Virus record (IMG/VR): IMGVR_UViG_3300020048_000019
Span: 64,001 to 128,000 of that record
Source: a virus
Taxonomy: Duplodnaviria > Heunggongvirae > Uroviricota > Caudoviricetes
Length of the DNA stretch: 64,000 bases
Strand: one strand, 5' to 3'
Position 1 is the first letter of the stretch. The number at the start of each line of letters is the position of its first letter. Under the pieces are notes generated by a model that was given only the letters and a program-made list of their open reading frames with translations, was not told the origin of the DNA and ran no database searches. Positions 13,130 to 64,000 of the stretch are shown piece after piece. The translations under genes and the position numbers were made by a program.

Positions 13130-14050
13130 ATGACTTTACTACCAAAAGCGACACCGCGTGTCAATTACTTGAACAACAGAGACATCTTGAAAGAGATTCA
13201 CCACAGCAAAAACACATACTGCTGGTACCGAGATCGTGACCTTGATCACCAATACGATATTATTTTGCCCAGTATTGACAAAATCAATCAGCGCACAGTA
13301 GCCGAGGCACGCCGCAATCGTGCTGACCGTATCAAGCGCGAAACTGGCGAGATTGTAGACCCCACAAAAATTCCCAATACAGATGTAGTGTTCCGCATCA
13401 CAGCCTGGGAGCATATTCCCAAGGCACCTAAAAAACTCACCAAAGCAGAACAAAAAAAGCGCAAACTAGAAGACATCCTGGATCTAGATGACGCCACCGA
13501 AGATGATCCACTAGCCGATCTGGTAGATGTGCCAGTGTTGGACATGAACTATGTTAGACTCAACTTCCCACCGTTTGAACACTTCCGCTTGGACGAAAAC
13601 AAAAACACATTCATTGTGGGCCGCAGCCATTGGAAGGGCGACCTGGCCACAGGAGAGTTTTGCAGGGAACACGGCAACATGACACGCAAACTGGCCATGA
13701 TGTTTATGAAACTATGCGAACGGTATGCCACAAGGAGCAACTGGCGTGGGTACACCTACAATGAAGAAATGCGTGGACAAGCTTTGCTACAACTCAGTCA
13801 GATTGGGTTACAATTTGACGAGTCCAAAAGTCAAAATCCGTTTGCTTATTACACTGCTGCTATTACCAACAGCTTTACTCGAATTCTAAATATTGAGAAG
13901 AAAAATCAAAACATCCGTGATGACATTTTGGAAATGAACGGGCTCAACCCTTCGTGGACTCGTCAGAACTCTGGTGCCAAAAGCATGGCTGCTCTGTCCG
14001 GACCGGTTGTGTCTAGCCTGGATGATGTAGTACAATCAGTAGATGAGTAA
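13130..14050 (+). CDS. gp55: Late-transcription sigma factor, T4 gp55-like
   Basis: NYLNNRDILKEI N-terminus and NWRGYTYNEEM...QFDESKSQNPFAYYTAAITNSFTRILNIEKKNQNIRD match gp55; directly precedes gp47 as in T4-like phages. Confidence 0.9.
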   Translation: MTLLPKATPRVNYLNNRDILKEIHHSKNTYCWYRDRDLDHQYDIILPSIDKINQRTVAEARRNRADRIKRETGEIVDPTKIPNTDVVFRITAWEHIPKAPKKLTKAEQKKRKLEDILDLDDATEDDPLADLVDVPVLDMNYVRLNFPPFEHFRLDENKNTFIVGRSHWKGDLATGEFCREHGNMTRKLAMMFMKLCERYATRSNWRGYTYNEEMRGQALLQLSQIGLQFDESKSQNPFAYYTAAITNSFTRILNIEKKNQNIRDDILEMNGLNPSWTRQNSGAKSMAALSGPVVSSLDDVVQSVDE

Positions 14051-15059
14051 TCTATTTAAAAAAGCTGCAATCTTTACCGACATCCACTTTGGACTCAAGT
14101 CAAACAGTTTGCTTCACAACGAAGACTGTTTGGCTTTTGTCAAGTGGGCCACTGCTAAGGCAAAACAAGAAGGTTGCGAAACCTGTTTGTTCCTAGGTGA
14201 CTGGCACAACAACAGATCCAGCTTGAATATTGTTACTCTCAACTATAGTCTACAAGCTCTGGAGCACATGAATGCTAATTTTCAACGTGTGTATTTTATT
14301 CCTGGCAACCACGATCTATATTATCGTGACAAGCGTGATATTCAAAGCGTGGAGTTCGCGAAGCACCTCCCTAATGTGGAAATCTGCAATGATTGGTTTA
14401 GTCACGGTGATGTGGTTATTGCTCCATGGCTATGTGGCGATGATTATCGGCGTATTCCCAAGCTGAGTGGCAAGTACATGTTTGGGCACTTTGAGCTGCC
14501 TGGATATCTGATGAACGCCATGGTTGCCATGCCCGATCATGGTGAAGTACGGCGTGAAGACTTTGTGAACTTTGATCATGTGTATACTGGACATTTCCAC
14601 AAACGACAAACCAAAAAGAACATTACCTACATTGGCAATGCCTTTCCCCACAACTACGCAGATGCCGGCGACGACGATCGTGGCTTGACTATTTTGGAAT
14701 GGGGCAAAGATCCTGTATATCATGCTTGGCCAGATCAGCCTAGGTATCGTGTTTACGGCTTGGCCAACTTGATTGACAATGCGCCCACTTTGTTAACACC
14801 CAAGATGCATGTTCGTGTAAACTTAGACATTGAGATCAGCTACGAAGAAGCCAACTACATCAAAGAAACTTTTGTGGAACAGTACCATCTTCGTGAAATG
14901 AGTTTGATCCCAAACAAAACTTCTGGTGTCGAAGAAGACTTGGCCCCTGGTGAAGTCAAGTTTGAATCAGTTGATCAAATTGTCACTGATCAAATTACCA
15001 ACATTGAGTCTGAGTTTTACGATAACAAATTGTTGCTAAAAATTTATCAAACGTTATGA
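14043..15059 (+). CDS. gp47: Recombination endonuclease subunit gp47 (Mre11/SbcD-like metallophosphoesterase)
   Basis: DIHFG, GDWHNNR, PGNHD, GHFE and GHFH phosphoesterase motifs. Confidence 0.93.
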   Translation: MSNLFKKAAIFTDIHFGLKSNSLLHNEDCLAFVKWATAKAKQEGCETCLFLGDWHNNRSSLNIVTLNYSLQALEHMNANFQRVYFIPGNHDLYYRDKRDIQSVEFAKHLPNVEICNDWFSHGDVVIAPWLCGDDYRRIPKLSGKYMFGHFELPGYLMNAMVAMPDHGEVRREDFVNFDHVYTGHFHKRQTKKNITYIGNAFPHNYADAGDDDRGLTILEWGKDPVYHAWPDQPRYRVYGLANLIDNAPTLLTPKMHVRVNLDIEISYEEANYIKETFVEQYHLREMSLIPNKTSGVEEDLAPGEVKFESVDQIVTDQITNIESEFYDNKLLLKIYQTL

Positions 15060-15511
15060 GTTGGCGTTCTGTACAGCTAGGAGAAGAATTTTGTGATCAA
15101 GACAAACTAATTTTAAGTTTGTTTTCTAACAAAACTGTAAACTATGTAGGCAACGATATTGAGTTCCGGCATCGGTTGTCTCATAGTGCCGATTCAAAAA
15201 ATCTTATTTTAATCTTAAACGCCCCAATTTGGATATCTGGTATCATTGCTAGTTGCAAACAACATTTAACCAAACAAGTAGAAACTTTTTACATAGGTAT
15301 CAATCGGTACTGTGTTCAAGGCAACGACACTAACAAAGCATTGATAGATACTGGAAATCGAGGCAGTGATTTGATACATCTTGTGACAGAAATTGCAGAG
15401 CGCCAAGGATTTTTAGTATCAAAGTCTGGACAGTTTGACAATGATCAAGGCAGGTATTTTAATTTTGTGCAGCCGTTAACATGGGCTTATGGACATAACT
15501 TTACAAACTAA
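15056..15511 (+). CDS. Hypothetical protein (AT-rich insert)
   Basis: 151-aa ORF with an ATGA overlap on the gp47 stop; no family recognised. Confidence 0.6.
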   Translation: MSWRSVQLGEEFCDQDKLILSLFSNKTVNYVGNDIEFRHRLSHSADSKNLILILNAPIWISGIIASCKQHLTKQVETFYIGINRYCVQGNDTNKALIDTGNRGSDLIHLVTEIAERQGFLVSKSGQFDNDQGRYFNFVQPLTWAYGHNFTN

Positions 15512-16058
15512 AGTCAACGATATCAATCGCAGTCAGTTTTACCAACAAGTATACCATCATCAGTCTGATGCTAAACACTCTTTGGTAAATCTAGATATGT
15601 TTACCAACGACTGTATTCTCGTTGATTGTTGCGGTTGGTACTACCGAAGTTTGTTTCCTACTAAAACAATCATATGCTTAGAGACTATAAAAACTGCTCT
15701 CCAATTCAGGCTAGGTAGAAGCAATTTTGACAAACTAATCGACAATCAAAAAGATTCATATATCGGTTGGCCAGAATTAGATGTTGTTAATCCTGTGTTG
15801 ATCTTTGACAGATCCCCAATGTTAAAATATCAAACTGTTAACGATCTAATCAATTTGTTATCTAATGCGGTCAAAAAATACAATGCCAGTCAGTTGATTG
15901 TAAATTTAGATACATTGTTCATTGATGATAACAGACTGCAAGATCGATTTTACAGTCTTGCAGCAATTACTATTCCCAACTTTACAGTTAGCGAAGTTTT
16001 ATACAAAATTGATTCTAGCAAACTATTCATGCAATTTAAACGTAACTATGTTGAGTAA
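15489..16058 (+). CDS. Hypothetical protein (AT-rich insert)
   Basis: 189-aa ORF overlapping both neighbours; no family recognised. Confidence 0.6.
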   Translation: MDITLQTKVNDINRSQFYQQVYHHQSDAKHSLVNLDMFTNDCILVDCCGWYYRSLFPTKTIICLETIKTALQFRLGRSNFDKLIDNQKDSYIGWPELDVVNPVLIFDRSPMLKYQTVNDLINLLSNAVKKYNASQLIVNLDTLFIDDNRLQDRFYSLAAITIPNFTVSEVLYKIDSSKLFMQFKRNYVE

Positions 16059-16932
16059 TAAAATTCCAATAGACTTTGTTGCCGGTAGTCACGGGCATTT
16101 TCTAGAAAATACACTAAACAAACATTTTAACATTGTCAATAACACCAGTGACTTGTTTACAGCTACTGGTACTAGTCATCGAGTAACTCCTAACTACCTG
16201 GCTCAAAGATTATTTTATGCCGAGCATTGGTCAGAAAAATACAAGAATGAGTTGCATAATATTTCTCCAGTTATATCTATTAGATTTGACCTAGACGACT
16301 TGTTGTTACTTTCTTCTGTGAGCTTGTTAAGAGCTGTGGATCTAGGAATCAACAACGATGATCTCGAAATTAACACCGTAGGCAAACTCAACAACGTATT
16401 TTACAAAGACACGTTAGAGTTAATCTTACAATCTTATCCGTTTTTAAATCGTAGTGACAAAAATATTCCTAGATACGTGCTGAGAGAGTTTTACAAATTT
16501 GGATTCCGAGATCCATTACAAAACGGATACTGGAAAAAGTTAAAACAACTAACATATGATAACCAAAGTAGAGTTTTTTACTTCAATCTAAAGGACTTTT
16601 ATGATATTAATTTGTATGTTGCCCGGATCAAAGAGTTGGAAATATTTTTAGATCGACGGTTTGAGTTCTCCAGAGAATTTTATCAACAACATCAAAAGTT
16701 TATTTCGTTTATTCCTTACATTGATCACAAATCACAATGTGACAGCATTGTGTCTTGTGTTCAACAAGAAAAAGAAATTGACATACCAAAACTCACGCTG
16801 TTCCAAGAAAGTTACATCAACAGTAAATTAGAAAACATGTTCAACAAGGAAATGCCGTTTCACCAGGATAGATACTTTACATCTACAAAAGATGTGTTAT
16901 ACTATATTGCTACACATGCACCTAATCTATGA
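16048..16932 (+). CDS. Hypothetical protein, possibly P-loop/sulfotransferase-like fold
   Basis: Likely start ATG 16048 (MLSNKIPIDFVAGSHGHFL). The N-terminal beta-strand plus GSHGHFL loosely resembles sulfotransferase 5'-PSB loops. ATGA overlap with gp46. Confidence 0.45.
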   Translation: MLSNKIPIDFVAGSHGHFLENTLNKHFNIVNNTSDLFTATGTSHRVTPNYLAQRLFYAEHWSEKYKNELHNISPVISIRFDLDDLLLLSSVSLLRAVDLGINNDDLEINTVGKLNNVFYKDTLELILQSYPFLNRSDKNIPRYVLREFYKFGFRDPLQNGYWKKLKQLTYDNQSRVFYFNLKDFYDINLYVARIKELEIFLDRRFEFSREFYQQHQKFISFIPYIDHKSQCDSIVSCVQQEKEIDIPKLTLFQESYINSKLENMFNKEMPFHQDRYFTSTKDVLYYIATHAPNL

Positions 16933-19010
16933 TCCAATTTAAAAATTTAACTGTTAAAAACTTTATGAGTGTAGGTAATGCTACCCAAGGCATTGACTTT
17001 GATCGCAGCGACCTTACACTTGTGCTAGGTGAAAACTTAGATCTAGGTGGTGACGGAAGCCGTAACGGAACAGGCAAGACAACTATCATCAATGCGCTAA
17101 GTTATGCCCTATATGGCAACGCCCTAAGCAACATTCGCAAGGACAATCTTGTGAACAAGACCAATAGCAAAGGTATGTTGGTCAGTTTAGAGTTTGATGT
17201 TAACGGTAAAGACTACAAGATCGAACGTGGTCGTAAACCTAATGTACTAAAGTTCTATGTTAATCACGAAGAACAAGCAGCAACAGATGAAGCACAAGGT
17301 GACAGCCGGGAAACACAAGAAGCAATTGAACGTGTGCTCGGTATGAGTCATGACATGTTCAAACATGTACTGGCGCTAAACACCTACACCGAACCGTTTT
17401 TGAGCTTGAAGGCCAATGAACAACGTGCTATTATTGAGCAGTTGTTGGGAATTACTTTATTGAGTGAACGTGCCGACCGCATCAAAGAACTTAACAAACA
17501 AACCAAAGATGCAATCACTCAAGAAGAGTTCCGCATCCGCGCTGAACAAGAAGCCAACAAACGTATTGAAGAACAGATCGAAAGCCTGCGCCGTAGACAA
17601 ACACTGTGGAAAAACAAGTACGACAGCGACTTGGCCACTTTGGTCACACAGTATGATGACTTGTCAAAGATTGATATTGCTGTGGAATTAGCTGCTCATA
17701 AAGACTTAGGTGCATGGAGTCAGTTGTGCTCACAAAAAGAAACCCGTGACGCCTTGATTGCTAGATCCACTGCATGGCAGCAGCGTCACGATACCGAAGT
17801 TCAAGCTGCCAGCCGTGCATACCTCGACAAGAACCGTATCAGCATTGAAACAGAGTTAGCTAATTGGGCTGCTCTAGCTGCCTACAATCAAAAAGCTCGA
17901 GACATTGCTGAACTAGAAAAACTCATTGCTCGCTGTGTTGCAGACGAATCAAAAGAAGTTAAACTGATTGATAAACTCAAGGCTGAAATTGCCGAGTTGC
18001 AAAATCACAAGTGTTATGCTTGTGGCCAAGACTTTCATGACGATAGCCACGAAGCAGTGTTAGCAGCAAAAGAAAAAGCCTTGCAAGAAGCAGCGCTTCA
18101 AGCCTTGGCTACCAATACTCAATGGATCGAACACACGGATGCTTTGCTAAAGCTAGGCGAGCTTGGTGCCAAGTCCGCAACACATTACAAAACCGAAGCA
18201 GAGGCCATTCGACACAGTAGTGAACTCAACAGTTTGAAGCAGACTCTTGATTTGAAGGAAGCCGAGTCTGACCCTTTTGCCGAACAGTTAGCAGAGCTTG
18301 AAGCTGTTACAGTACCACCTATGCCAGTTACGCACTATGACACCGAATCAGAAGCCATCAAACACTCAAGTCAAGTTGACAACTTGTTAACACAGATCAC
18401 TAACAAGCATGCTGAAACTGATCCTTACGGTGAACAGATCACAGACATGCAACAAAAAGCATTGCAAACTGTCAGTTACGATGCACTCAACGATTTGGTG
18501 CGTGTACAGGATCACCAGGACTTCTTGCTAAAACTGTTGACCAGCAAGGACAGCTTTGTTCGCAAAAAGATCATTGATCAGAACTTGAGTTACTTGAACA
18601 GCAGGCTTACTCACTACTTGGATCGTATTGGTTTGCCACACACTGTGAAGTTCCAAAACGACTTGAGTGTCAGCATTGAAGAGCTGGGTCGTGAACTGGA
18701 CTTTGACAACTTGAGTCGTGGCGAGCGCAATCGACTGATTCTTTCAATGAGTTGGGCATTCCGGGATGTATGGGAATCGCTGTACCACCCCATCAACTTG
18801 CTGTTCATTGACGAACTGATTGACAACGGCTTGGACACACAAGGTGTAGAAAATGCACTTGCTATTCTTAAGAAGATGAGTCGTGAGCGCAACAAGAGTA
18901 TCTGGCTTGTGAGCCATAGAGAAGAACTAGCCGGACGAGTGGAGAACATCCTTAAGGTTGTTAAGGAAAATGGTTTCACGAATTACAATACTGATATAGA
19001 TGTTGCGTAA
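16929..19010 (+). CDS. gp46: Recombination ATPase subunit gp46 (Rad50/SbcC-like)
   Basis: KNFMSVG, Walker A NGTGKTT, zinc hook CYAC (18012-18023), signature LSRGE, Walker B LFIDE, H-loop VSH. Confidence 0.93.
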   Translation: MIQFKNLTVKNFMSVGNATQGIDFDRSDLTLVLGENLDLGGDGSRNGTGKTTIINALSYALYGNALSNIRKDNLVNKTNSKGMLVSLEFDVNGKDYKIERGRKPNVLKFYVNHEEQAATDEAQGDSRETQEAIERVLGMSHDMFKHVLALNTYTEPFLSLKANEQRAIIEQLLGITLLSERADRIKELNKQTKDAITQEEFRIRAEQEANKRIEEQIESLRRRQTLWKNKYDSDLATLVTQYDDLSKIDIAVELAAHKDLGAWSQLCSQKETRDALIARSTAWQQRHDTEVQAASRAYLDKNRISIETELANWAALAAYNQKARDIAELEKLIARCVADESKEVKLIDKLKAEIAELQNHKCYACGQDFHDDSHEAVLAAKEKALQEAALQALATNTQWIEHTDALLKLGELGAKSATHYKTEAEAIRHSSELNSLKQTLDLKEAESDPFAEQLAELEAVTVPPMPVTHYDTESEAIKHSSQVDNLLTQITNKHAETDPYGEQITDMQQKALQTVSYDALNDLVRVQDHQDFLLKLLTSKDSFVRKKIIDQNLSYLNSRLTHYLDRIGLPHTVKFQNDLSVSIEELGRELDFDNLSRGERNRLILSMSWAFRDVWESLYHPINLLFIDELIDNGLDTQGVENALAILKKMSRERNKSIWLVSHREELAGRVENILKVVKENGFTNYNTDIDVA

Positions 19011-19866
19011 TATAAAAGTACTTCACCTTGAACCCACAGACGTATGCCAAGCAGCATGCGCCTTGTGTGCTCGCGAGACTGATGTCAACTTCCGTAAGGA
19101 TCAGCAGCACCATCTTGACATGCACAAAATTCTGCAGGTGTTTGATGCTGACCAGATTGCTGTACTGGAAAAAATGTTCATGTGCGGCAACTACGGTGAT
19201 CCCGCTGCCGGCAAGCACACTCTTGATATCTACCAAGAGTTTCGCAAACTCAGCCCCAACATTGTGTTGGGCATGAACACCAACGGTGGTTTACAAAGCA
19301 CTCTTTGGTGGCACGAGCTTGGTAGAATTTTCAAGCAGCCGCAAGACTATGTGGTTTTTAGTATTGATGGACTAGAAGATACCAATCAAGTTTACCGTAA
19401 GAATGTAAACTGGACTAGGCTGATGGCCAATGCAGAGGCCTACATTGCTGCCGGGGGCGCTGCTCACTGGGACATGTTGGTTTATCGTCACAACCAGCAC
19501 CAGGTAGATGCTTGTGAACAACTGGCACGGGATATGGGATTTTCGTGGTTCCGTGCCAAAGTCAGCAAACGTGGATTTACAGACAGACTACAGCAACCAA
19601 TGTCTTGGCAGTTGCCAAATGTGAGCTCCGCTGCGATTGATTGTCATGCACTCAAAGAGCAAAGCGCATTTATAGATGCACAAGGGCGCATGAGTCCTTG
19701 CTGTTGGTTGGGCAGCAGACAACAGAATTTTATTACAGATTTTGACATGGTTCAAAATTCCTGGGCTAGCTTGCAGCCTGTTACGACTTGCATAGACGCC
19801 TGCGGAACCGCAGAAGGATCTAGCAGTTTTGCAAACCAATGGCAGCGAGAAACACCACTAAAATAA
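19000..19866 (+). CDS. Radical SAM protein with C-terminal SPASM/twitch-like Cys motif
   Basis: EPTDVCQAACALC (CxxxCxxC), CGNYGDP, NTNGG, FSIDG, and IDC...IDAQGRMSPCCW...C..AC. Confidence 0.88.
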   Translation: MLRNIKVLHLEPTDVCQAACALCARETDVNFRKDQQHHLDMHKILQVFDADQIAVLEKMFMCGNYGDPAAGKHTLDIYQEFRKLSPNIVLGMNTNGGLQSTLWWHELGRIFKQPQDYVVFSIDGLEDTNQVYRKNVNWTRLMANAEAYIAAGGAAHWDMLVYRHNQHQVDACEQLARDMGFSWFRAKVSKRGFTDRLQQPMSWQLPNVSSAAIDCHALKEQSAFIDAQGRMSPCCWLGSRQQNFITDFDMVQNSWASLQPVTTCIDACGTAEGSSSFANQWQRETPLK

Positions 19867-19922
19867 CAGGCAACCCTTTAATCATGCTAACTACTACATA
19901 AGGCAGCAACGCAAAACACTAC

Positions 19923-20351
19923 ATGACTTGGTTTTATCAAAACACCTCAGTTGAGACATTACCCGAAGAATGTATTGGATTTGTATACTTAATCACAAAT
20001 AATCTATCTGGACGCAAGTACATAGGCAAAAAACTAGCTAAGTTCTCAAAAACAACTTACAAGACAGTTACACAAAAAAACGGCATCAAAAAAAAGAAAA
20101 AGGTTAGATCAAAGGTCGATTCAGACTGGCGCGACTACTACGGTAGCAGCGATAATCTAACCACAGACATCACTCTATTAGGCACCGAAAACTTTACCAG
20201 AGAGATACTCTACTATTGCACATCAAAAGCTCAGTGTTCCTACATTGAAGCTCGCGAACAGTTTAATCGTAAAGTATTGGAATCACTAGATTATTACAAC
20301 GGCCATATCTCAGTCAGAGTACATGGCTCACACATTATAAACAAAATTTAA
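19923..20351 (+). CDS. Small GIY-YIG family protein
   Basis: GFVYLITNNLSGRKYIGKK motif, conserved YYGSS, REIL, E and YN residues; Lys-rich insert KNGIKKKKKVRSK. Confidence 0.85.
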   Translation: MTWFYQNTSVETLPEECIGFVYLITNNLSGRKYIGKKLAKFSKTTYKTVTQKNGIKKKKKVRSKVDSDWRDYYGSSDNLTTDITLLGTENFTREILYYCTSKAQCSYIEAREQFNRKVLESLDYYNGHISVRVHGSHIINKI

Positions 20352-20823
20352 TTCACGCAGTTATGGCTCGCACCAGCTAATATCGGGTGCCGAACAGAAG
20401 ATACCTGGACCGTTGTGTCGCAGGGAACCGAAGACTTGACGCTGCATCAAGCACTCAGCAACTATCCTTGACAGGACGACGATCGCTATCTAAATGCCGC
20501 GATTTTGCTGTTTGAACAGAATTTAAAAGGCCAAAAAGATGTAGCATCGCTGCTACAGTTTATAATACCCAGTTAGCGTTGAGTATTATAAATGCCGTTG
20601 TGATAAGAACTAAGCGAGCAGGTACCGGACAACCGCCTGTGTTGAGTAGCAATACTCTGTAGCTTTAACGCTAGTGACTGTGCCGACTCAGATGAAGCCC
20701 ACTCATTTTGCCCTGTGCGGGCAAAGTGTGACTGATAGATCTAGATGAATATTTAAATCGCTTTGCTCTTGTTTAAAACATGTGTGAGCGATAGCGAAAC
20801 ACATTGATGTACGAAGTACATCA
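20352..20823 (+). ncRNA. Candidate large structured non-coding RNA (family unassigned)
   Basis: ~470 nt with no ORF of 60 aa or more in an otherwise gene-dense genome; at least 10 stem-loops read by eye, including GAGTA-GCAA-TACTC (GNRA loop). Strand inferred from the GNRA loop, G-U pairs and the upstream gene. Confidence 0.55.
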
Positions 20824-21606
20824 TGATAAACGTTCTATTAGAATATCTTCAAACATCCTAGCATACTGATTGTTTGATTGTACACCAGGATGCAATTGAT
20901 CATTGTTAGTATCAATTCGACATGACCTCATGGAATTGTAAAGATTTAGCCATTGTAATGGTTTGATCCCACCTGCTTGTGCTAATCCATGATGCATTTT
21001 GTCATATAATTTGAAAATCTCTGAATCGTCTCTGTTGTCAATATTCAATAGCTTTTGTGTGTATTTGGTGTATTGGTTTGGCATCACGTTTGACAATTGA
21101 GTGAAAAAATCATTGTCCCAAGGACACAAACCATTCACAAAATACACCTGTGTTTGCACTACAGCGGCTAGTGCTGTGATTGAATTAGTATACTCAACTA
21201 GATTTAAAATTTCGTAGCAGTCGTGGCTTAGTGCAACAAATCGATCTTGCACTGTTGTCAGATAGCTCTTGGAATAGTTAATGTCGTTTAGATTATGGTC
21301 TCGACACTGTCCGTTTGGTGCAAATGACTGAAAAGTGTTGTATAGTTCAAATCCTAGTTCTATGTTGTATCGGGAACAGCTAGTCCATTGAACAATTGCA
21401 GTTTTTACTGGATGATTCAACAGTGCTTTTACAGTATCCTGAAACACCCCTGCATTGGATCTTCCTGCTGAGCTGATATTGAGCAGTTCGGTATCAGCAA
21501 ACATTCCAGAATACAACTGATTGACCCATAGATCAGGGTCTTGTTTCTCAAGATCAAACCCAGTGCCAGCGCTGTAGGAACATCCAGAAAATAGTGTGTA
21601 CTCCAT
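20821..21606 (-). CDS. SGNH/GDSL-like hydrolase
   Basis: Start reassigned to ATG 21606 (MEYTLFSGCSYSAG = block I); SSAGRSN (block II) and NDQLHPG (block V DxxH). Confidence 0.75.
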   Translation of the reverse strand: MEYTLFSGCSYSAGTGFDLEKQDPDLWVNQLYSGMFADTELLNISSAGRSNAGVFQDTVKALLNHPVKTAIVQWTSCSRYNIELGFELYNTFQSFAPNGQCRDHNLNDINYSKSYLTTVQDRFVALSHDCYEILNLVEYTNSITALAAVVQTQVYFVNGLCPWDNDFFTQLSNVMPNQYTKYTQKLLNIDNRDDSEIFKLYDKMHHGLAQAGGIKPLQWLNLYNSMRSCRIDTNNDQLHPGVQSNNQYARMFEDILIERLS

Positions 21607-21613
21607 TGTGATG

Positions 21614-21952
21614 TCAAAGATTAATATCTGGCCAGTCGCGGAAAAGTGCATGTTGAATAGTTGAGCAATCCACGAATTGATTAAAGCTCTTGTGTTTGTC
21701 TTCGAGTTCGCCTTCAAGTGGTGCAACTCGTTTAAATGCACTATCCATCTGTGCCATGTCATTGAACTCCATTAAAATCATAAATTCTGGCATGTCTGCT
21801 ATAGATCTAAATCCCATCTTGCAGCGTGTGATTCTGTAAGTTTCCATTCGGCCTTCTGAGATCAAGTGATCAAAAAAGCTTTTCATGTTGTTGACCCATT
21901 CAAGATCTGAAATGTCCCCGGCCTTGTTGGCCCAAATTGTATATACGTCCAT
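21614..21952 (-). CDS. DUF6614-like small alpha/beta-barrel protein
   Basis: 112 aa; YRITRCKMGF...EFMILMEF.DMAQMDSAF...H...N......ALFRDWPD resembles DUF6614 (dimeric alpha-beta barrel), from recall only. Confidence 0.55.
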   Translation of the reverse strand: MDVYTIWANKAGDISDLEWVNNMKSFFDHLISEGRMETYRITRCKMGFRSIADMPEFMILMEFNDMAQMDSAFKRVAPLEGELEDKHKSFNQFVDCSTIQHALFRDWPDINL

Positions 21953-35053: not shown

Positions 35054-35138
35054 CTTGTCAATGCAATAGTGCATTTTATGCAGGACACCACTGCGTAGCG
35101 GCTAGAACCCGCATTGGGCTTCTATAAGGAGAAATCAA

Positions 35139-35939
35139 ATGGGAAGAGCTCTTAAAATACAAAAAACTGGCGCCAATCAGGGCGTTGGTTCGCCAGGCGC
35201 GTCAGTACTACTTGACGCAGGTTATCCAAATTTTGGATCGTTGACCAATCCAGTTTACAACTCAGACAATACATTAACACCGACCAACTTCTTGGGCGTG
35301 GTTGGCGGTGCACCGGTAATCAGTTCACCATCTGCACAGTTTCCAGAAATTTTAGCAACTGTAAACATTGCATTGCCAGATGGCTCGGGTCAAGGCAGTG
35401 CCGGTGGTCGTATTATCCGTCAAAAAGGTTCTCACAAATTCTTGGTGTCCAGTAACACCACTGTTAACGATGAATCCATGGTAGTTGGCGCAACTTACAT
35501 GATCGTTACTTTAGACACCACAAACTGGCAACAAATGGGTGCTCCAGTTGGTGCCGCAGCCGGTACAATTTTCCTTTGTACAGCACTGTGCGCTGATCCA
35601 CAAAACGGTGCTGGTGTGCTAGTTGGACAATGTGTGTTGGCCAATACAGGCTCTCCAGCTGCCGGTTTCATGAGCATCTCTTTCAGTCTTGGAGATAGTC
35701 AAGCAGTGTATGCTAGTTACATTACCAACAAGTGGGTACGTGATTGGTCAGGCATGACTTATGGCAACTACAGCAACTCCAATCTTGGTGTTAACATTCA
35801 AAGTGGCGAAAACTTCTATCCAGCTAACTTCTTTACTGATGAAGGCACAGTTACATGGAGTGGTGCTGAAATTGTTGGCGGTGCTCAAGCACAAAACGGT
35901 ACTCTGCAATTGGCACAAATTGCCAGCGTTGTTTCCTAA
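35139..35939 (+). CDS. Putative virion structural protein
   Basis: 266 aa, strong SD, late promoter, own terminator; contains an RIIRQKG.HKF motif; no family recognised. Confidence 0.6.
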   Translation: MGRALKIQKTGANQGVGSPGASVLLDAGYPNFGSLTNPVYNSDNTLTPTNFLGVVGGAPVISSPSAQFPEILATVNIALPDGSGQGSAGGRIIRQKGSHKFLVSSNTTVNDESMVVGATYMIVTLDTTNWQQMGAPVGAAAGTIFLCTALCADPQNGAGVLVGQCVLANTGSPAAGFMSISFSLGDSQAVYASYITNKWVRDWSGMTYGNYSNSNLGVNIQSGENFYPANFFTDEGTVTWSGAEIVGGAQAQNGTLQLAQIASVVS

Positions 35940-61493: not shown

Positions 61494-64000
61494 ATGGCTC
61501 TAGTATCACCCGGCGTAGAAGTAACAGTAATTGACGAGAGTCAATACATCCCTTCAGCAGTCAACACAGTACCTTACTTTGTTGTTGCTACTGCACAGAA
61601 CAAAGTATCCAGTGACGGCTTGACCGTTGCAGCAGGAACTCTTGCAGCAAACGCTAACAAAACATATCTCATTACCAGTCAGCGCGATCTGGCTGCAACC
61701 TTTGGTGTACCGTTCTTCTACAACACTACTACAGGCACTCCAATCAACGGTTACGAACTCAACGAGTACGGCTTGTTGGCTGCATACTCTGCTTTGGGCG
61801 TTACTAACCGCGCTTATGTTCAACGTGTGGACGTCAATCTGACAGAACTTACTGCCAGCCTGAGTCGTCCAGTTGGCACACCAAACAATGGTACTTACTG
61901 GGTTGATGCATTGACATCAACTTGGGGTATCTTTGAATGGAATCAAACAACCAACACATTTACAAACAAAGTGCCAATGGTAATTACTAGTGCCGCCGAT
62001 GTTGAAGGCGGTGATGGGTCTAATCCTATTGCTGACAACGCACCAATTAGCTCGATTGGTAGTATTGGCGATTATGCGATTACCGCAGTAGATGTTCAGA
62101 TTTTTGGTTACTACAAGCGTTATGATAACGTTTGGGTTCAGGTTGGCGGAAATGAGTGGAAAAACGCTTGGCCAACAATAACAAGCACCAACGCTCCGAC
62201 TACTCTGACAGTAGGCAACAATATGTTCATCAATGGTACATTGGTAGCCGTTGATGCCACCAATACCGTTGCCGGATTTGTTAGTGTGATCAATAATGCT
62301 GCAATTACCGGAGTAACTGCTCGATCAGTTAGTGGTAAATTGGCCCTGTACGCAGACGCTTTTGCTTCGAGTGATGGAAGTTCTTTAGTTTTTAACGGAT
62401 TAATTCATATTATTCCAGGACCCAACGGCGGCGCAACATTGTTTACAGCACTTGGTCTGACAGAAAATACCTATGCCGCCCCTGAATATTTCCCAGGCTA
62501 CAGCTATCAAAGCCCACGTTGGAGAACCACAGACGGTGCAAATTCTCGTCCTACAGGATCTGTATGGCAAAACTTGAGCACTGCAAACAACGGCCTGGAT
62601 ATCAGTGTCAAGCAATACAGTACTGCTCTGGGTGTGTTTATTGAACAAAACTGTCCAGCATACGCTCTTGATCGCAATGCAATGCTGGGACTTGACAGCA
62701 CAGGCGGCGGCAAAAATATTCCGGTGGGATCTACCTACGTTTCGTATGATACAGTGAGTTATTTGACAAATCCTATATCAAATACATTTGCCATGGAAAT
62801 CTTTGAACGGTTTGCCATTGGTGCATTAGAAGTTACTGGCGATACTGTGGTCAGTACTGGTACTCCGTTTACCCCAGCTAATGCCTTTGCTATTACTGGT
62901 ACCGCTGCCGGACAAGATACTACTAATTCTGGAACCGCAACAATTGGCGGAACAGGAACAGCAGCGGACTTTGTTGCCGCAGTTAGTTCGGCCAATGTTC
63001 CCTACGTATCTGCAACAGTTAACAGTGCCGGTAAAATTGTGTTTACGCACAGCCAAGGTGGTACAATTACATTACAGAACCAAGGCGGCGGCACCGCAGT
63101 AACTGCTGCAGGTTTTACAGTAAATACTAGCAAATGTCGTCAAGCTTCGACAGTTGCAACGGTATTGGTATTGAGCAATTGGGTAACAACTCCATTGTTT
63201 ACCTACACCGCTAGTGCAACTGCGCCAGATCAGGATCCAGCAGATGGTCGCCTGTGGTATTATAGCAGCGTGACTGATCTGGATATCATGATCCAGGACA
63301 ACGGCACATGGCAAGGTTATCAAAACGTTACCAATGATGTTCGTGGTTTTGATCTAAGCTTGACTAATGCAACTGGTCCTATTGTTGCTGCAACAGCACC
63401 ATTGACACAAAATGACACTGCAGAAAGTCCTTTGCAGCAAGGCGACTTGTGGCTGGACTCCAGTGACTTAGAAAACTATCCAGTGATCTATCGTTGGGAA
63501 TTAGTAAGTGGACAACAACAATGGATATTGATCGACGACACTGATCAAGTTACTGAAAATGGTGTGTTGTTTGCAGACGCACGCTGGGCTCCTAATGGAA
63601 CAACTGATCCAGTATCAGCAGCTTTCCCAACTATTGAAAGCTTGCTAACCAGCGATTATTTGGACCTTGATGCTCCAAACCCAGCATTGTACCCACAAGG
63701 TATGTTGTTGTTTAACACACGCCGTAGCGGATATAACGTCAAGAGTTTCCAGAGCAACTACTTTAATGCTACTAGCTATCCTGATGATGTGTTACCAGTT
63801 GTGCAGTCTACTTGGCTCAGCGCTAGCGGTAATCGCGACAACGGTGCTATGTGGGGCGGTCGCCTTGCACAGCGTCAATTGATTGTTAAAGCACTCAAAG
63901 CTGGCATTGATACTAGCATTGCAGCACGTGAAGAACAAAATCAGTTCAACATTATTGCTGCTCCGGCATATCCTGAATTGACACCCAACATGATTGCACT
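61494..64000 (+). CDS. gp18: Tail sheath protein gp18 (partial, runs off the window end)
   Basis: Manual translation MALVSPGVEVTVIDESQY..., ITSQRDL..TFG.P.FY, ELNEYGLLAAYS.LG..NRAYVQR; the window ends in ...NIIAAPAYPELTPNMIAL. Confidence 0.92.
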   Translation, partial: MALVSPGVEVTVIDESQYIPSAVNTVPYFVVATAQNKVSSDGLTVAAGTLAANANKTYLITSQRDLAATFGVPFFYNTTTGTPINGYELNEYGLLAAYSALGVTNRAYVQRVDVNLTELTASLSRPVGTPNNGTYWVDALTSTWGIFEWNQTTNTFTNKVPMVITSAADVEGGDGSNPIADNAPISSIGSIGDYAITAVDVQIFGYYKRYDNVWVQVGGNEWKNAWPTITSTNAPTTLTVGNNMFINGTLVAVDATNTVAGFVSVINNAAITGVTARSVSGKLALYADAFASSDGSSLVFNGLIHIIPGPNGGATLFTALGLTENTYAAPEYFPGYSYQSPRWRTTDGANSRPTGSVWQNLSTANNGLDISVKQYSTALGVFIEQNCPAYALDRNAMLGLDSTGGGKNIPVGSTYVSYDTVSYLTNPISNTFAMEIFERFAIGALEVTGDTVVSTGTPFTPANAFAITGTAAGQDTTNSGTATIGGTGTAADFVAAVSSANVPYVSATVNSAGKIVFTHSQGGTITLQNQGGGTAVTAAGFTVNTSKCRQASTVATVLVLSNWVTTPLFTYTASATAPDQDPADGRLWYYSSVTDLDIMIQDNGTWQGYQNVTNDVRGFDLSLTNATGPIVAATAPLTQNDTAESPLQQGDLWLDSSDLENYPVIYRWELVSGQQQWILIDDTDQVTENGVLFADARWAPNGTTDPVSAAFPTIESLLTSDYLDLDAPNPALYPQGMLLFNTRRSGYNVKSFQSNYFNATSYPDDVLPVVQSTWLSASGNRDNGAMWGGRLAQRQLIVKALKAGIDTSIAAREEQNQFNIIAAPAYPELTPNMIA

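Follow-up and report, generated by a model that had tools for sequence, protein, structure and literature searches.

The locus raises the question of what is encoded in a 469-nt gap free of open reading frames (ORFs) that starts at the stop codon of a small GIY-YIG gene in a phage genome, and whether its product works together with the adjoining protein. The window, the whole 64-kb stretch of DNA analysed, is part of a 177-kb virus record that is about half complete and carries T4-like genes, identified by PHROG matches as late sigma factor, gp47, gp46, baseplate hub, and portal. The gap had been singled out as the largest in the window; counting ORFs of at least 60 amino acids, it ranks third, and longer gaps lie at 1030–1536 (507 nt) and 61843–62399 (557 nt). 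Upstream, a plus-strand operon (13130–19866) of T4-like phage character encodes a gp55-like late sigma factor (13130–14050, PHROG 12791/234), a gp47-like protein (14043–15059, PHROG 100), a gp46-like protein (16929–19010, PHROG 77), and a radical SAM protein (19000–19866, Pfam Radical_SAM), and read-through from it into the GIY-YIG/RNA locus is conceivable. On the other side, a convergent 313-aa ORF on the minus strand (20821–21762) is a variable neighbour outside the element.

The hexamer TAAATA precedes 21 of the 147 ORFs in the phage genome, against 1.5 expected, and marks late genes. An Rfam freshwater-2 RNA (35059–35141 of the window, plus strand, 75.5 bits) directly follows such a TAAATA late promoter and lies 5′ of a start codon. 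The late-promoter-like hexamer ahead of the GIY-YIG gene is TAACTA (19888–19893, plus strand), where we infer the start of the transcript carrying both the gene and the RNA. Since TAACTA, TAATTA, or TAAGTA lies within 60 nt of the GIY-YIG start in 120 of 135 distinct relatives, the gene and the RNA are probably made as one transcript. RNA sequencing runs gave contigs of relatives only, and one 618-nt contig (depth 38.7) spans part of the element; such contigs show neither ends nor level and hence are no evidence of transcription.

The gene itself (19923–20351, plus strand) encodes a 142-aa SegE-type protein without a DNA-binding tail. The original prediction of a bare GIY-YIG domain was confirmed by PF19835 (E 3e-31), by PHROG 447, and by a predicted fold resembling the catalytic domain of I-TevI (1ln0; Z-score 8.0, r.m.s.d. 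2.7, 82 aligned residues), and the protein has a long basic β-hairpin (strands 40–50 and 56–66). Just before the conserved Trp69, where Arg is usual, we noticed by eye an Asp residue, and nuclease activity is therefore putative. PHROG 447 and many GenBank records label this family 'NAD synthetase', which looks wrong because both the sequence and the fold give a GIY-YIG domain. The protein shows a 37.7% match to PSSM2_218, and the GOS11034/PSSM2_218-like genes belong to the same GIY-YIG family.

The gap encodes a real, knotted non-coding RNA that has been partly catalogued. Nucleotides 20365–20513 match the full Rfam Polynucleobacter-1 model (RF01718) with 91.9 bits against a gathering threshold of 37, and a scan of the region at E-values up to 1 gave this family only, without any HEARO, GOLLD, ROOL, OLE, or intron match. 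The RNA had been taken for a member of an unassigned family, which does not hold for this 5′ third; the remainder, which extends to about nucleotide 20823 and brings the element to about 460 nt in all, lies outside the Rfam model. All twelve stems read by eye in the original prediction exist at their positions; the hairpin at 20644–57 is an insertion in this genome rather than a conserved element. Three pseudoknots and a pair of identical boxes were absent from that list.

Folding energy alone was unconvincing, with z-scores of −1.84 for the plus strand and −3.44 for the minus strand. The structure was supported by covariation in a MAFFT alignment of 51 relatives of the same RNA class (class A), which was not fitted to any structure. 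Across 61 named pairs, 91.7% of the cells were paired, a figure lowered by a register offset in part of one helix, as compared with 77.5% in shuffled alignments and 33–43% when the partners were slid; compensatory changes occurred at 46 of the 61 pairs. G-U pairs outnumbered A-C combinations in the body (211 vs 21), indicating that the plus strand is the folded strand. Each of the three pseudoknots was 90–98% paired in this alignment. The 5′ domain (20365–20513, plus strand), which is the Rfam family, contains the first (20365–68 with 20375–78). The core (20514–20673, plus strand) is a multiloop outside the Rfam model with the other two, both 98% paired: 20597–20601 with 20629–20633, where three of five pairs are compensatory, and 20574–20579 with 20668–20673, where five of six are. 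A single copy of the element was found in each of five large genomes, four of which are more than 90% complete, and a blastn search with the element against cultured phages gave no match.

The 5′ part of this RNA and its neighbourhood to the gene were known. The Polynucleobacter-1 motif was described downstream of GOS11034/PSSM2_218-like genes (Weinberg et al. 2010, PMC2864571), so the association of RNA and gene was already published in the supplement of that paper. Our element agrees with RF01718 at 20365–20513 and in its position downstream of a PSSM2_218-like gene. It differs in extent: the Rfam model covers 141 nt, and some further 3′ columns exist in the 2010 alignment file (PMC2864571), whereas the element of about 460 nt has two more pseudoknots, the twin boxes, and a tail. 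The 2010 description also gave no function, phage assignment, or island context. With HEARO/OMEGA, GOLLD, ROOL, and OLE the element has in common a large ornate RNA, a small adjoining nuclease, and location in phages. HEARO/OMEGA systems, however, combine an HNH/RuvC nuclease (IscB, IsrB, TnpB) with multiple copies and a variable guide, whereas here we found a GIY-YIG protein, one element per genome, and no variable guide; for GOLLD, ROOL, and OLE there was no Rfam match, nor a tRNA near the element. A group I intron with a GIY-YIG homing endonuclease was considered and rejected, as no Rfam intron matched, the flanking genes are variable and unrelated, and the protein ends after the nuclease domain.

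The linkage between the RNA and the gene is tight among the relatives of this phage. We gathered 160 related loci by the protein, of which 132 had at least 700 nt of downstream sequence, and every one of the 132 holds the element 3′ of the gene: 57 belong to class A, 59 to class B, and 15 to class C, and the last is a weak class A element that has an Rfam hit. Starting from the RNA, the GIY-YIG gene was present in 42 of 42 loci, and the linkage holds down to 57% protein identity. In close relatives, the 5′ domain is swapped for unrelated 5′ domains: classes B and C, both missed by the RF01718 model, have unrelated 5′ halves, B retains the central core, and the 3′ module is common to all classes. 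Class C RNA has little of the body in common with the other classes, yet it is found with an identical protein. Identical proteins accompany RNAs of classes B and C (loci L016 and L017), and the boxes differ next to identical proteins (L015 and L099), which implies that the protein reads neither the 5′ half nor the boxes. In 18 loci, cargo genes of up to 1.7 kb are inserted between the GIY-YIG gene and the RNA, which there mostly lacks a promoter of its own. The protein family also occurs in 458 records of cultured phages, and none of the five inspected has such an RNA. Two viral contigs (L192 and L194, one of 518 kb) carry a twin-box element resembling an alphaproteobacterial island class, with no GIY-YIG gene within 3.5 kb.

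The element contains a pair of identical 7-nt boxes, AGATGAA, at 20690–20696 (box 1) and 20743–20749 (box 2), both on the plus strand and with a spacing of 47–61 nt in phages and up to 72 nt in islands. The boxes are identical in 130 of 135 phage loci, and the window of identity is exactly 7 nt: these positions are 95–100% identical, while the boxes differ at positions −1 to −3 and at +8. Parsimony on RNA-body trees that left out the boxes required 64 changes in box 1 and 62 in box 2, and only 67 for both together, meaning that the boxes changed in concert about 60 times. Eighteen different matched words were found, eight of them in island RNAs with near-identical bodies. We left out L188, a chance repeat, and L169; the latter is a mis-binned phage contig that carries a twin-box element and a baseplate hub gene within a Fischerella MAG. 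The exceptions include two islands that combine AACAAAA with TCCAAAA, as well as A/T mismatches at position 7. K-turns or box C/D motifs, sigma-70 promoter pairs, iterons, recombination cores, and ribosome hopping were each rejected because variants break them and the spacing is not helically phased.

What could hold two boxes identical over so many changes? A complement of the box was not found at any fixed place in the RNA, with only six scattered matches in 109 elements, so the pairing partner must be the other strand. The direction of the rare mismatches points the same way. In a direct scan, 13 contigs have G in box 1 where box 2 has A, and none shows the reverse. These contigs represent six sequence lineages, and a seventh occurs in islands; together they may be only four to seven independent events, some possibly of shared ancestry, for which a sign test gives about 0.02–0.12 in this small sample. 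Such an asymmetry would be expected if box 1 pairs with the opposite strand at box 2, because G can pair with the template T, whereas A cannot pair with C. The box data thus suggest that box 1 pairs with the DNA strand complementary to box 2, and we propose that box 1 might act as the 3′ pairing end, or self-guide, of the RNA.

The hairpin between the boxes (20706–20726) has on average 9.2 pairs on the top strand and 8.7 on the bottom strand over 136 elements; being nearly Watson-Crick, it is able to form on either strand. An A/T-rich linker of variable length follows box 2 in all classes. On the bottom strand, a C-GAA-G mini-hairpin is found in 43 of 51 class A and 9 of 10 class C elements and is rare in class B and the islands; its slot in this genome (20758–20768, minus strand) is degenerate. 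The tail 3′ of the linker (plus strand) comprises a tandem-GA hairpin (20780–20804) and a perfect hairpin with a C-GAA-G loop (20805–20823), the latter coinciding with a terminator-like match on the minus strand (20823–20805). Tail loops are of the type C-GNA-G in 68 and C-GNNA-G in 25 of 129 cases, as against C-GNA-G in 0 of 105 body hairpins. Mini-hairpins of these types are far more stable in DNA than in RNA, and are found at the initiation sites of G4, RSF1010, and N4 (PMC13037366). Judged by these patterns, the element resembles an RNA body fused to a tail of DNA character.

The same RNA is encoded in bacterial chromosomes. A search with a pattern taken from the 2010 Polynucleobacter sequence identified 25 genome stretches. 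Most of these hold the full element, and they belong to Polynucleobacter, to other Betaproteobacteria, or to some alphaproteobacterial bins, with several in isolate chromosomes. No GIY-YIG gene was found near the bacterial copies. They reside in islands, often at tRNA genes, with a conserved layout: an integrase is joined by a gp44-like clamp-loader ATPase, two unknown proteins, and a 188-aa tyrosine recombinase, together with the RNA and a DUF6641 gene of divergent orientation. In genome G001, an island lies at tRNA-Phe with a 66-nt repeat (89%) 10.8 kb away; this genome has two islands bearing the RNA, which lie 18 kb apart and differ in their boxes. The phage-type late hexamer TAAATA is found 5′ of the RNA in all 21 bacterial copies with enough upstream sequence, and in 83 of 89 islands it keeps a fixed distance from DUF6641. 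The islands have a second TAAATA that points at the 3′ end of the RNA. In 12 island loci, a second TAAATA drives a small protein starting with M-K/R-x-x-E-hydrophobic, as do many phage late genes; this start recalls the T4 capsid-targeting sequence. DUF6641 was found in 100 of the 201 Polynucleobacter genomes searched, with up to eight per genome, which points to these bacteria as the hosts.

The RNA is not essential to the island family and is one of several exchangeable modules. The twin-box RNA was scored in 27 of 89 DUF6641 islands and seen by eye in a few more, about a third, and the slot is otherwise occupied by a repeat-rich leader with a 150–177-aa ORF, or by a small ORF with another structured RNA bearing the same tail hairpins. 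The leader is self-complementary, about 200–240 nt long, and follows the late promoter (L368:132-373, L370:131-323), ahead of a 149–177-aa ORF of no known family. The other structured RNA (L374:520-880, L375:430-830, L373:440-850) lies 3′ of a 98–127-aa ORF, and no matched boxes were found in it. A further island RNA class has altered box flanks (L307, L316, L343, L350, L351, L361, L362, L367, and L263, the last from a genome below the Rfam cut-off), with boxes such as AGTAAAG, AGCAAAA, and AGCAATG. Homology between DUF6641 and the GIY-YIG protein was rejected, as only the basic hairpin aligns (probability 0.9%). A fold search with DUF6641 gave no meaningful match, and neither the 260-aa and 250-aa island proteins nor the alternative slot proteins matched a family or structure. 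DUF6641 is not encoded in any of the five phage records, and a scan of IMG/VR for it returned nothing.

We read these islands as putative satellites or defence islands of the phages. Like PICMI (PMC10803314) and PLE satellites, they are small integrase islands at tRNA genes with signs of dependence on a lytic helper; no structural gene, capsid gene, or recognised primase was among the island proteins scanned. Their core, however, consists of DUF6641, the gp44-like ATPase, the short tyrosine recombinase, and late-promoter cassettes, whereas PICMI has AlpA and a primase and integrates at fis; neither AlpA nor a primase was among the core proteins scanned, which cover part of the island ORFs. An integrase, integration at a tRNA gene with a flanking repeat, and the lack of virion genes among the proteins scanned are features of phage satellites in general. 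The DUF6641 islands (L255–L261 and L278–L383) apparently constitute a satellite-like family that had not been described before, marked by T4-type late promoters and a gp44-like ATPase. A literature search on the island family, DUF6641, and capsid-targeting satellites, with most subscription journals outside its reach, found nothing, and we found no paper joining the phage RNA to bacterial islands.

How, then, might the RNA work? The original prediction had suggested, as a possibility and by analogy with HEARO, a ribonucleoprotein in which the RNA supplies specificity to the nuclease. A compact nuclease beside an ornate RNA would fit a HEARO- or OMEGA-like programmable nuclease whose variable guide addresses other DNA, but neither a hypervariable guide directed at a target elsewhere nor a second copy, nor any match longer than 19 nt in its own genome, was found, and Rfam gave no HEARO match. 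The occurrence of protein without RNA in the five cultured relatives inspected, and of RNA without gene in the islands and two viral contigs, also speaks against this model, as does the pairing of identical proteins with different RNA classes. A related idea is a DRT- or telomerase-like template RNA for a jumping reverse transcriptase, since DRT templates, like our element, have a short stretch bounded by identical boxes. RVT_1 (PF00078) is, however, absent from the five phage records, four of them over 90% complete, and the tolerated mismatch is opposite to that predicted for cDNA realignment. Both forms are largely refuted, and we give them hardly any credence. A ribonucleoprotein aimed at its own locus, in which the RNA is bound by the GIY-YIG protein and directs, through box 1, a nick to box 2 that starts replication, recombination, or packaging, with islands using the helper protein in trans, is unlikely rather than refuted. 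It would explain the linkage seen in both search directions and the long basic hairpin, and a constant protein with altered boxes is what RNA guidance predicts; it has to contend with a protein family that is common without the RNA, cargo genes that separate the two, a class C RNA with little shared body beside an identical protein, twin-box contigs with no GIY-YIG gene within 3.5 kb, and an Asp before Trp69 that makes nuclease activity putative.

The partner of box 1 could also be an antisense RNA from convergent late transcription, acting as a switch or terminator. Convergent genes follow many phage copies, the second island TAAATA is aimed at the 3′ end of the RNA, the minus strand has its terminator-like match, and the same wobble rule would hold; nevertheless, many class A phages have as their next gene one that runs in the same direction and possesses a late promoter of its own. 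If template switching across the hairpin kept the boxes identical without selection, an abrupt end to homogenisation after 7 nt, next to flanks that stay fixed and different, would not be expected. We consider explanations of this sort improbable. Somewhat easier to entertain, if still doubtful, is a late RNA acting in trans as a scaffold, decoy, or anti-defence factor, whose boxes are either bound by one protein in two copies or dock symmetrically; its island look-alike would be expressed as a payload by which the island interferes with the phage or exploits it. An elaborate RNA-type body with three pseudoknots behind late promoters, its interchangeability with other modules in the island slot, the swapping of classes A, B, and C among near-identical phages as in arms-race loci, and a box spacing without helical phasing would all suit such a role. 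However, a protein reader would have to change at each concerted box change, including those among islands with near-identical bodies, and none of the genes next to the RNA was seen to co-vary; neither the G/A asymmetry nor the DNA-type tail loops are predicted.

We tentatively favour, as possible though short of probable, a cis-acting role in which the transcript would pair with the DNA of its own locus and serve as an R-loop primer or as a mark for packaging, a function that satellites have borrowed. This reading draws on the co-change of the boxes, the G/A asymmetry, the lack of a complement in the RNA, the DNA-type tail loops, the single copy, and the island architecture. The gap holds the Polynucleobacter-1 RNA in its full-length form, at a single-copy locus of freshwater T4-like jumbo phages, and this RNA is presumably made as the 3′ end of the GIY-YIG transcript. 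The RNA might act on its own DNA, with the pseudoknotted body ending at box 1, which could anneal to the template strand at box 2 across the hairpin that forms on either strand, creating a short R-loop. The R-loop might prime DNA synthesis or mark the site for processing and packaging, and the A/T-rich tail with its DNA-type mini-hairpins could serve as loading signals. The co-transcribed GIY-YIG protein might be active in the same step without reading the boxes, and the host integrase islands, with their own copy behind a phage-type late promoter, may borrow the function during infection.

There are precedents for parts of this scheme. In ColE1, RNA II forms a hybrid in cis that is used as a primer. 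The origins oriF and oriG of T4 and ColE1 RNA II resemble the element in having a transcript followed by an A/T-rich stretch, with a cis hybrid as primer being our proposal for the element; the duplicated 7-mer occurs in neither, and no sequence likeness was seen. At T4 origins, R-loops serve as primers and an A/T-rich element lies downstream; the known origins have middle promoters and are shut off late by UvsW (PMC3016281). They span about 100 bp and need no folded RNA, whereas the promoter nearest to our element is of the late type, and this difference from middle-mode, UvsW-silenced origins weighs against an R-loop origin, with read-through from the gp55-47-46 operon as a possible other source of the transcript. 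So does the absence of a skew switch: GC and keto skew at fourfold sites over the 177-kb half genome showed no change point at the element. A hybrid of 7 bp is also short, and the RNA is optional in the island family.

In summary, the 5′ motif and its link to the gene were known before, and this analysis adds the context of the islands, the asymmetry of the mismatches, and the DNA-type tail. As the phages of the Polynucleobacter-1 motif are uncultured, it has lacked a function since 2010; the full copies that lie behind a phage late promoter in cultured Polynucleobacter chromosomes now make the RNA experimentally accessible, and the box rule provides a sharp genetic test by mismatch and rescue. 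It is conceivable, though we regard the combined claim as doubtful, that T4-like jumbo phages start their replication or packaging by means of a large RNA that targets its own DNA via a 7-nt box of freely changeable sequence, whether or not the GIY-YIG protein takes part, and that an undescribed, very common family of Polynucleobacter satellites carries its own copy under the late promoter of the helper. If the box rule holds, the element would be a self-pairing initiation RNA and might reveal a route by which satellites tap T4-like jumbo phages.
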